From an uncultured Erysipelotrichaceae bacterium (GTDB lineage: Bacteria; Bacillota_I; Bacilli_A; Erysipelotrichales; Erysipelotrichaceae): a stretch of 5,024 nucleotides of DNA. The stretch is taken from positions 1-5,024 of the forward strand of contig CAYWGS010000109.1 of NCBI GenBank assembly GCA_964457525.1, read 5' to 3'. Shown here in pieces: positions 162 through 5,024 of the stretch. Numbering within the stretch: position 1 is the stretch's first letter; every line of letters starts with the position of its first letter. The position numbers were made by a program, and so were the translations under genes. The notes beneath the pieces are model-generated. The model did no database searches, was not told the DNA's origin, and was given only the letters and a program-made list of their open reading frames with translations.

Positions 162-590
162 ATGAGAAATATATTATTTGTATGTATCCATAACTCAGCA
201 CGTAGTCAAATGGCAGAAGCATTCCTCAATCGTTTAGGTGAAGGAAAATTTATCTCTGAAAGCGCAGGGATCGAAGCAGGCAATTTAAATCCGCTTGTTG
301 TGAAGGCAATGGCTGAAATTGGATATGATTTAAGTCAGAATAAAACCAAATCTGTATTCGATTTCCATAAACAAGGAAAAACGTATTGGTCAGTTATAAA
401 GGTATGTGATCAAGCCAATGGAGAAAGATGTCCTATCTTCCCAGGTACAGTAAATAATTTCAATTGGAACTTACCGGATCCTTCCGCATTACAAGGAACT
501 GAGGAAGAAAAGATGGTTGAAATCCGTAAGATTCGTGATCAAGTTAAATTAAAGGTAGAAGAATTTATTCGTGATTATGAATCTGTTTAA
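162..590 (+). CDS. arsC: Arsenate reductase, thioredoxin-coupled LMW protein-tyrosine-phosphatase family (ArsC)
   Basis: 142-aa ORF. The N-terminal P-loop C8-IHNSA-R14-S15 fits CX5R(S/T), within 'ILFVCIHNSARSQMAE'. A downstream cysteine pair C82/C90 ('VCDQANGERCP') matches the Cys82/Cys89 relay of the S. aureus pI258 type ArsC, and 'LPDP' supplies the catalytic Asp. AAGGAA SD at 148-153 lies 8 nt before the ATG. Stop is TAA. Confidence 0.9.
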   Translation: MRNILFVCIHNSARSQMAEAFLNRLGEGKFISESAGIEAGNLNPLVVKAMAEIGYDLSQNKTKSVFDFHKQGKTYWSVIKVCDQANGERCPIFPGTVNNFNWNLPDPSALQGTEEEKMVEIRKIRDQVKLKVEEFIRDYESV

Positions 591-915
591 AAAAACAATG
601 TATGAAGCGATAGGAACTGGATTACTATCGCTTCTTATTAGTGCTTCAGGTTATGTTGGTTATACTCTTTCAAATGGAAATATTGGATTTTCACTTCTAG
701 TGAATAGTATTATTACAGGCATTGGTCTCTATAGTTTAATTGTATACTTTAGACCATTAAGTGGTGCAGAGTTTAATCCATTGGTTAGTTTTCTATTAGT
801 AATCAAAGGAAAGAATTCTCTTCTTGAGGCAATCTTAAAGAGTTTAGGACAAGTTGTTGGGGCTGTTGTTGGAGTAATATTTATGCATCTTCTATTTGAT
901 CTTGCCATCATATAA
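571..915 (+). CDS. MIP/aquaporin-family channel, N-terminal hemipore (TM1-TM3 plus loop-B re-entrant helix); ends at an in-frame TAA
   Basis: The ORF contains 'AIGTGLL' (compare the AEF.GT TM1 motif) and 'SGAEFNPLVSF' (compare the canonical SGxHxNPAVT loop-B signature). It has three hydrophobic TM-length segments. The start is uncertain: GTG571 or ATG577 (both overlapping the arsC 3' end) or ATG598 (7 nt after the arsC stop). None has a good SD, which suggests translational coupling to arsC. TAA at 913-915 is in the same frame as the next ORF. Confidence 0.75.
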   Translation: MIMNLFKKTMYEAIGTGLLSLLISASGYVGYTLSNGNIGFSLLVNSIITGIGLYSLIVYFRPLSGAEFNPLVSFLLVIKGKNSLLEAILKSLGQVVGAVVGVIFMHLLFDLAII

Positions 916-921
916 TCTTCA

Positions 922-1233
922 ATGACAATTCGTTCATCGTATACACTCTGGATAAGTGAATTACTTTCTTCAATTATCCTTCTCATCGTTATTTTAAGAA
1001 CATTTGAATTGAATGATCATCAAACAGGAATGTTTATTGGAAGTATTGTAATGATTGGGTATTGGATAACACCTTCCACATTCTTTGTTAATCCTGCACT
1101 AACCTTCGCAAGAACGCTTACGAATACGTTTGTTGGAATACGATTGATCGATGCATTTATTTTTATTTTATTTCAATGTTTAGCTTTACTCTTATTTGTT
1201 GGGTTAAAAAAGAAGTTAAAATCAACTCAATAA
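922..1233 (+). CDS. MIP/aquaporin-family channel, C-terminal hemipore (TM4-TM6 plus loop-E re-entrant helix)
   Basis: Same reading frame as 571-915, since (922-571) is divisible by 3. Only TAA-TCT-TCA separates them. The ORF has three hydrophobic segments and the second NPA box 'FFVNPALTFAR' (N57-P58-A59, nt 1090-1098), then a basic C-tail 'GLKKKLKSTQ'. There is no SD upstream of ATG922. The two ORFs read together give about 220 aa, the normal MIP length. Confidence 0.75.
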   Translation: MTIRSSYTLWISELLSSIILLIVILRTFELNDHQTGMFIGSIVMIGYWITPSTFFVNPALTFARTLTNTFVGIRLIDAFIFILFQCLALLLFVGLKKKLKSTQ

Positions 1234-1267: not shown

Positions 1268-3602
<2,335 letters not shown>

Positions 3603-3607
3603 AAAAT

Positions 3608-3635
3608 AGGCGGACTCTTAAAGTCCGTCTATTTT
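3608..3635. terminator. Bidirectional rho-independent terminator shared by the convergent bglA and ATPase genes
   Basis: Stem AGGCGGACT (3608-3616) pairs with AGTCCGTCT (3622-3630), giving 9 bp including one G.U, around the loop CTTAA. It is followed by ATTTT on the + strand. AAAAAAT (3601-3607) precedes it, which reads as AUUUUUU on the minus-strand transcript. The right arm overlaps the ATPase stop codon (3629-3631). Confidence 0.75.
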
Positions 3636-4863: not shown

Positions 4864-4870
4864 TATATAT

Positions 4871-4962
4871 GCGGATATAACCGCATAAATGTAATTAAAT
4901 ATAAAAAATTCGGATATAAACGCAATAAAACAATAAAAACAAAATTATGCGGATAAATCCGC
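4871..4962. repeat. Three phased copies of a short palindromic motif (consensus about KCGGATAWAWMCGCA), candidate operator/iteron array
   Basis: Copy 1 is GCGGATATAACCGC (4871-4884). Copy 2 is TCGGATATAAACGC (4910-4923, degenerate). Copy 3 is GCGGATAAATCCGC (4949-4962), a perfect 6-bp inverted repeat GCGGAT-AA-ATCCGC. Start-to-start spacing is 39 bp in both cases. Each copy is followed by CA(A/T)(T/A)A and AT-rich filler. Copy 1 begins 7 bp upstream of the putative -35 of the ATPase promoter. Confidence 0.7.
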
Positions 4963-5024
4963 AATATACTAAAACACTATATTAGAGTAATTAGTAATCG
5001 ACTTTATAACAAGCAGCTCAATGA

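Follow-up and report, generated by a model that had tools for sequence, protein, structure and literature searches.

A segregating nonsense allele of an arsC-linked aquaporin-family channel gene in an uncultured wastewater bacterium

An arsC-linked MIP gene interrupted by a stop codon

The window analysed here, a stretch of 5,024 nt from contig CAYWGS010000109.1 of an uncultured Erysipelotrichaceae bacterium, carries a gene for a channel of the MIP (major intrinsic protein, or aquaporin) family directly coupled to an arsC-like gene. The MIP gene is divided by a single TAA codon into two open reading frames (ORFs), and we document here that this interruption is a derived nonsense allele that segregates within the species. 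All positions below are window positions. The features that bear on the interruption are as follows (TM, transmembrane helix; LMWP, low-molecular-weight phosphatase).

162..590, plus strand: arsC-like gene for an LMWP-type arsenate reductase (Pfam LMWPc, 53.6 bits)
571, plus strand: GTG, alternative start of the MIP gene (from the ORF list)
577..915, plus strand: N-terminal half of the MIP gene, TM1-TM3 plus the NPL re-entrant helix, 112 codons (Pfam MIP)
589..595, plus strand: poly-A tract (A7) within the first MIP codons, A8 in some haplotypes
775..783, plus strand: first NPx motif, Asn-Pro-Leu, residues 67-69 (N67 and P68 invariant in the family alignment)
911..916, plus strand: TATAAT hexamer, TACAAT in intact alleles, 5 nt upstream of ATG922 (read from the sequence)
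913..915, plus strand: premature stop TAA, from CAA (Gln113) via a C-to-T transition at 913 (allele alignment)
918..924, plus strand: site of a 7-bp deletion (TTCAATG) in other haplotypes (loci L038 and L039)
922..1233, plus strand: C-terminal half of the MIP gene, TM4-TM6 plus the NPA re-entrant helix, 103 codons, from an in-frame ATG
1090..1098, plus strand: second NPx motif, Asn-Pro-Ala, residues 172-174 (N172, P173, A178 and R179 invariant)

The possible starts at 571, 577 and 922 are all 1 mod 3, which places both MIP ORFs in one frame, and between the two lie only TAA (913-915), TCT (916-918) and TCA (919-921), followed immediately by ATG922. The ORF layout thus confirms the arrangement described in the initial annotation of this DNA. 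The MIP start at 577 falls inside the end of the arsC-like gene at 590, an overlap of 14 nt. The arsC-like gene scores 112.9 bits against the NCBIfam model arsC_pI258_fam, under the threshold of 174.3 bits; as read from its sequence, the encoded protein has a CX5R motif (CIHNSARS) and two Cys residues further downstream.

When joined, the two MIP halves make a protein of 218 amino acids that scores 42.7 bits against Pfam MIP (PF00230), for which the cutoff is 25. The first half alone reaches 36.6 bits over profile positions 7-110 of 222, and the second half alone has no Pfam match. Against the model TIGR00861 the joined protein scores 35.7 bits, so far under the cutoff of 171 that it must be viewed as a divergent member of the family. 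The intact allele was modeled with AlphaFold2 on the basis of a 30-sequence family alignment; the model has a pLDDT of 94.7 and a pTM of 0.90, and shows eight helices in the expected order (residues 3-31, 36-62, 68-76, 82-106, 122-144, 147-164, 173-179 and 190-217). A Foldseek search with this model returned AQP3, AqpM, AqpZ and NIP2;1 at TM-scores of 0.7-0.79. Loop C comprises residues 107-121 of the model, with the stop at codon 113 and the downstream Met at codon 116, and an alignment to AQP0 puts the stop at the same place in loop C. The two window ORFs together therefore encode what is modeled as an aquaporin-fold MIP channel, split in loop C. The length, score and predicted fold agree with the initial view that read-through would give a normal MIP of about 220 residues; the break does lie between TM3 and TM4, and the model helices and the NPL and NPA motifs agree that each ORF corresponds to one hemipore repeat of three transmembrane helices and an NPx motif.

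The second motif departs from the canonical NPAR. Throughout the family it reads NPA-x-T-x-A-R (1090-1113), with the invariant R179 five residues downstream, and the selectivity filter of the arsC-linked MIPs may, judging from these sequences, be built differently from the canonical one.

Single-chain relatives and the ancestral codon

A protein search found P0001, a 218-residue protein that is 99% identical to the window MIP over its full length; P0038, from the same cluster, differs from the window only by a Gln at the stop. The CAA haplotypes that encode P0001 and P0038 are 98.3-99.7% identical to the window at the DNA level. Position 913 is C in 20 loci with intact alleles and T in 17 loci and the window. 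The corresponding column of the family alignment holds a sense codon in all sequences, Gln in 17 of 30, and the outgroups inspected carry Gln as well. With CAA in the sister alleles and Gln in the outgroups, TAA is the derived state.

Both repeats reside on one polypeptide in the sister alleles P0001 and P0038 and in the relatives examined, and in the window allele they do not. The 33 homologues of the first pass are single ORFs, either of 213-279 residues or, in one form, a 375-residue MIP-ArsC fusion, save for two short exceptions: P0006, on a probably chimeric contig, and P0033, of 149 residues, on a contig of 666 bp. Relatives at 60% and 44% identity have an uninterrupted MIP gene with the same arsC-MIP overlap. 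A scan of GTDB genomes with the patterns YWITPSTFF and SGAEFNP, which the sequence of the window species itself does not match, gave 80 loci from distant relatives (Pseudomonadota, Actinomycetota and similar), and all 80 showed one continuous match over residues 100-130, without a stop. A profile search found at least 7,999 clusters, of which the best 120 are all 218-250 residues long. Apart from the two short exceptions, no split MIP was found among the 33 close matches, the 80 genome loci and the best 120 of these profile matches, and a conserved split architecture was therefore rejected. The initial annotation had named uninterrupted relatives, with a sense codon at this position, as the outcome that would speak against a novel two-chain channel, and this is largely what these searches returned. 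The Met at which the second ORF begins (ATG922, Met116) is already present in the intact alleles; three relatives inspected have Thr, Ser or Val there.

The association with arsC extends well beyond the window. In 46 of the 80 genome loci an LMWP-type arsC lies within 3 kb of the MIP gene, and P0026 (375 residues) is a fusion of a MIP to an LMWPc domain, so that adjoining, overlapping and fused arrangements are all seen among the short arsC-coupled MIPs.

The stop allele and other lesions in wastewater populations

The haplotypes come from wastewater and sewage metagenomes of several projects. The exact protein of the second half (P0034) occurs on 40 contigs and in 63 index blocks, and the exact first half (P0035) on 36 contigs, with an Ile87 variant of the first half on six more. 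The intact alleles occupy 31 (P0001) and 27 (P0038) index blocks, at least 58 together against 63 for the TAA allele. The stop allele is thus carried by about half of the sampled haplotypes, and the intact form by about half. The initial reading of the interruption as a very recent nonsense pseudogene holds as far as a nonsense change from an ancestral CAA goes, but this is a common allele, present in dozens of metagenomes.

One base separates the TAA allele from the intact alleles, and the ancestral residue is Gln, which is what a sequencing or assembly artefact, or a recoded stop read through as Gln, might look like. The same T913, however, turns up in assemblies made independently of one another, from many samples and by many pipelines, which excludes the assembly or sequencing error allowed for at 913-915. 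An alternative genetic code or read-through was rejected on two grounds. TAA also ends the arsC-like gene (588-590), the second MIP half (1231-1233), bglA (3600-3602) and the minus-strand AAA14 gene (3629-3631), these being four other window genes that end at family-typical C-termini, with Pfam domain coverage extending to the C-termini of the TAA-ended genes; TGA ends the hydrolase gene. Sister alleles of the same species, moreover, use CAA for Gln113. TAA followed by T is a strong termination context, which also counts against read-through. The TAA is accordingly a genuine stop, as first proposed, and an artefact or a recoded codon is hardly credible.

For comparison of alleles and diversity, 39 loci were aligned to the window; they had been fetched by exact protein sequence, which biases the set against nonsynonymous variants. 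In this alignment TAA is present on three of the four backgrounds defined by positions 708 and 835, implying recombination or some chimeric contigs. In neighbour-joining trees the TAA haplotypes form, for the most part, a single clade; one intact haplotype falls within it, and one TAA haplotype falls elsewhere. Nucleotide diversity in the flanking genes is as follows.

arsC: TAA haplotypes 0.0148, CAA haplotypes 0.0170
hydrolase: TAA haplotypes 0.0073, CAA haplotypes 0.0173
bglA: TAA haplotypes 0.0033, CAA haplotypes 0.0082

The flank diversity of the TAA haplotypes is substantial but lower than that of the CAA haplotypes, which fits a derived allele at intermediate frequency that has since recombined. 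The MIP gene itself has six segregating sites, four synonymous and two nonsynonymous (the stop included), too few for dN/dS, and the only site in it private to TAA haplotypes is one synonymous change. Across all 39 loci diversity is 0.020 in arsC, 0.014 in the hydrolase, 0.007 in bglA, 0.0026 in the MIP gene and 0.0009 in the AAA14 gene. Low diversity of the MIP gene was considered as a special signal but dismissed, since that of the AAA14 gene is lower still; the strong mosaic as a whole may reflect local sweeps, or recombination that imported sequence only at those genes which diverged relatives share.

The stop is not the only lesion that this gene has in the species. Contigs L038 (5001-5372) and L039 (1548-1919), which represent five samples and belong to a lineage diverged by about 2%, lack the 7 bp TTCAATG (918-924). 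This deletion takes away ATG922 and changes the reading frame, so that the product ends in IIQSQFVHRIHSG followed by a stop (P0044). No ATG, GTG or TTG is left before TM4, and the deletion allele is therefore unable to make a complete second half. In the A8 haplotypes (L127-L129) the poly-A tract breaks the frame that starts at ATG577 (MNLFKKNNV, then a stop), and the gene is called from ATG598 as a protein of 211 residues (P0040/P0042); some of these haplotypes also carry S24P, at a Ser that is invariant in the family. The initial annotation saw no other decay, which stands for the TAA haplotypes but not for the species, where both the 7-bp deletion and the poly-A frameshift with S24P occur. 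Given this independent deletion and the A8/S24P haplotypes, the MIP channel looks, from the alleles seen, dispensable in this species.

The deletion starts 3 nt downstream of the nonsense codon, and the two loop-C lesions fall within four codons of each other. Their nearness could be chance, a mutational hotspot, or a preference for truncation after a complete first repeat.

Two further variants, at the C-terminus (P0006 on L021, P0046 on L129), were rejected as probably derived from chimeric low-coverage contigs, since their tails match nothing else. L021 (259-1245) and L129 (about 1825-1898) are short contigs that match the MIP gene perfectly until window position 1177 or 1186 and then become unrelated; L021 continues into a higher-GC stretch with an HD-domain gene.

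The genes and features on the other side of the MIP gene are these.

1268..2107, plus strand: alpha/beta hydrolase, EstT/EstX-type macrolide esterase homologue (Pfam Abhydrolase_1, 94.1 bits)
2142..3602, plus strand: bglA, 6-phospho-beta-glucosidase (GH1), the final plus-strand gene (Pfam GH1, 441 bits)
3611-3627, minus strand: terminator-like hairpin after bglA, listed by the scan as a minus-strand terminator
3629-3631, minus strand: TAA stop of the AAA14/DUF4143 gene

In this neighbourhood a different target of selection is conceivable. The C-to-T change creates the TATAAT hexamer at 911-916, and it could have been favoured for making a consensus -10 box that raises transcription of the second half, the hydrolase and bglA, with loss of the channel as a by-product. 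The EstT/EstX-like macrolide esterase homologue is a plausible object of selection in sewage, and the terminator scan lists no plus-strand terminator-like site between the MIP gene and the hydrolase. The -35 match, however, is no better than two of six, there is no TG extension, the promoter scan does not list 911-916, and the 7-bp deletion allele forms no such box. We regard this regulatory explanation as very improbable. A transcript from the candidate TATAAT would begin at about 922-924 and be leaderless or nearly so.

Several other features of the surroundings may be recorded. The hydrolase scores 311.8 bits against NCBIfam NF052610, under the threshold of 420, and is by far the most polymorphic gene, with 24 nonsynonymous and 40 synonymous segregating sites; its single-nucleotide polymorphisms are clustered in short blocks that resemble recombination imports. 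In a plasmid search with the locus, bglA was the sole match, at 65-67% to Bacillota; together with bglA, the PTS/MurNAc genes nearby point to Bacillota as the group of the host. An 18-nt palindromic repeat, TATGCGGATATAACCGCA, occurs three times in window 4868-4963 at a spacing of exactly 39 nt; the copies are intergenic, upstream of the minus-strand AAA14/DUF4143 gene, and two of the three also score as terminator-like hairpins. The upstream neighbours (L001-L023) vary in length, with the PTS EIIBC protein at 506 or 472 residues and MupG at 355 or 350, and a PRD antiterminator upstream is 275 residues long but 189 in L023. Gene truncations seem to be common in this population.

Function of the allele and comparison with known systems

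The window carries a derived nonsense allele (Gln113stop) of a single-chain, arsC-coupled MIP gene of about 218 codons, with loss of function as its most likely effect. Arsenic physiology offers a setting for such a loss. In Sinorhizobium meliloti the channel AqpS confers resistance to internally made arsenite and sensitivity to external arsenite, and MIPs such as GlpF are known routes of arsenite uptake (PMC6205960). By analogy with AqpS, the intact channel would serve as an exit for the arsenite that ArsC makes, and also as an entry for arsenite from outside. In this low-GC wastewater bacterium, whose MIP gene exists in intact, stopped and, more rarely, otherwise damaged forms, translation of the TAA allele would end after TM3, and the channel would be abolished or strongly reduced. 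With no ribosome-binding site of its own, the second half would depend entirely on inefficient re-initiation 6 nt downstream. Such an allele might be tolerated, the channel being dispensable, or it might be favoured, if losing a pore that admits arsenite shields the cell from arsenite or antimonite in its surroundings. Under the AqpS trade-off a null allele could be neutral, or advantageous where arsenite dominates, and either would fit both the frequency of the allele and the recurrent lesions.

Several observations weigh against a simple loss of function. No TAA haplotype carries further damage, and dozens of contigs share the very same two half proteins. The allele has also persisted, as its wide distribution and its recombination show. 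A distance of 6 nt from stop to ATG is a geometry that permits termination-reinitiation. The distribution of Lys and Arg, set against the sequence and the model helices, would allow each half to insert on its own, as the initial annotation held. Two frame-breaking lesions at most four codons apart in loop C are also not what simple random loss predicts. The absence of decay has no statistical power in either direction, however, because the intact alleles are equally invariant (the MIP gene diversity of 0.0026 given above).

Some of these points recur in the case for a functional split. Ribosomes would re-initiate at ATG922 after terminating at TAA913, and two hemipores of three transmembrane helices each would insert separately, the second with its N-terminus outside, and form a two-chain channel, which would make the nonsense change nearly neutral in function. 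The stop-to-start distance suits this proposal, as do the Lys/Arg pattern and the predicted position of the cut, halfway along an extracellular loop of 15 residues with a structurally complete repeat on either side. Every TAA haplotype seen also preserves both halves without change, and the allele is frequent over a wide geographical range. So clean a split is also an uncommon product of mutation. Of the 99 single-base changes that give a stop in the intact gene, only three fall in loop C upstream of ATG116, as does one of the ten transitions that do so; a random nonsense change would therefore yield a clean split in 3-10% of cases. A coincidence of this size is unremarkable, because the finding was picked for looking clean.

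What counts against the functional split is found in its translation signals, in its history, and in the second loop-C lesion. ATG922 has no Shine-Dalgarno sequence; its best duplex with the anti-Shine-Dalgarno sequence is +1.4 kcal/mol, compared with -9.6 for the hydrolase, -5.9 for bglA and -5.1 kcal/mol for arsC. Met116 pre-dates the stop and is not conserved in the relatives inspected, and no other split member was found among those checked in the family of at least 7,999 clusters. The 7-bp deletion allele lacks ATG922 and still circulates, so loss of the second half is tolerated. Conservation of the halves says little, given the equal invariance of intact alleles, and in the literature searched we found no two-chain aquaporin, natural or engineered. 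The natural heterodimer put forward at first thus draws no support from conservation, translation signals or the second lesion, and a functional split is unlikely. Its more specific form, a functional two-chain arsenite channel whose second half is made by termination-reinitiation or from a leaderless transcript starting at the new TATAAT, is quite improbable. If true, it would account for the worldwide spread of an allele in which neither half is damaged, and would supply a first living example of the half-size state that presumably came before the internal duplication of the MIPs.

On the preferred reading, that of a nonsense allele with probable loss of function, the locus is properly annotated as a disrupted arsC-linked MIP rather than as two novel small membrane proteins. 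A null allele at about 50% in global sewage metagenomes, together with independent lesions, suggests a trade-off at an arsenite-permeable channel, which would be useful against arsenate and harmful where arsenite is external. The allele also offers a natural construct with which to ask if the two aquaporin repeats are able to fold and come together as separate chains; a positive answer would bear on the origin of the MIP fold.

Among known systems the closest is AqpS. There too a MIP gene is co-oriented and directly coupled with an arsenate reductase gene, and the expected logic would be the same, with ArsC-made As(III) exiting via the channel and sensitivity to As(III) from outside as the price. 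The window differs in that the partner is an LMWP/thioredoxin-type ArsC-like protein that scores under the NCBIfam cutoffs, in that the channel is short, divergent and stop-interrupted, with NPL and NPA motifs and an Arg displaced by five residues, and in that no arsR or other ars gene lies within the 5,024 nt. Channel-enzyme fusions of MIP and ArsC in actinobacteria (Wu, Song and Beitz 2010, as cited in PMC6205960) represent, on that account, the same functional pairing, and P0026 of the present family is exactly such a fusion; the window, unlike them, has two separate overlapping genes, of which the MIP gene is cut. Disruption of glpF in E. coli leads to antimonite resistance (Sanders et al. 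1997, as summarised in PMC6205960). Loss alleles of that kind, as described in the summary, resemble the proposed state of the window allele in that an inactivated As(III)- or Sb(III)-permeable MIP yields metalloid tolerance, which would account for a null allele being common and for lesions having recurred; the channel of the window, however, belongs to an arsC operon and not to a glycerol regulon, and an advantage here would be by extension from that case. Aquaporins are an example of inverted symmetry on a single chain (review, PMC3962082). The SemiSWEET dimers and the paired small multidrug resistance proteins are similar in that each ORF of the window is one repeat of an inverted-repeat fold. 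Their halves, in contrast, are separate genes that are conserved across many species and have their own translation signals, whereas the split in the window is a within-species polymorphism of a single-chain gene, conserved nowhere else among the sequences tested.

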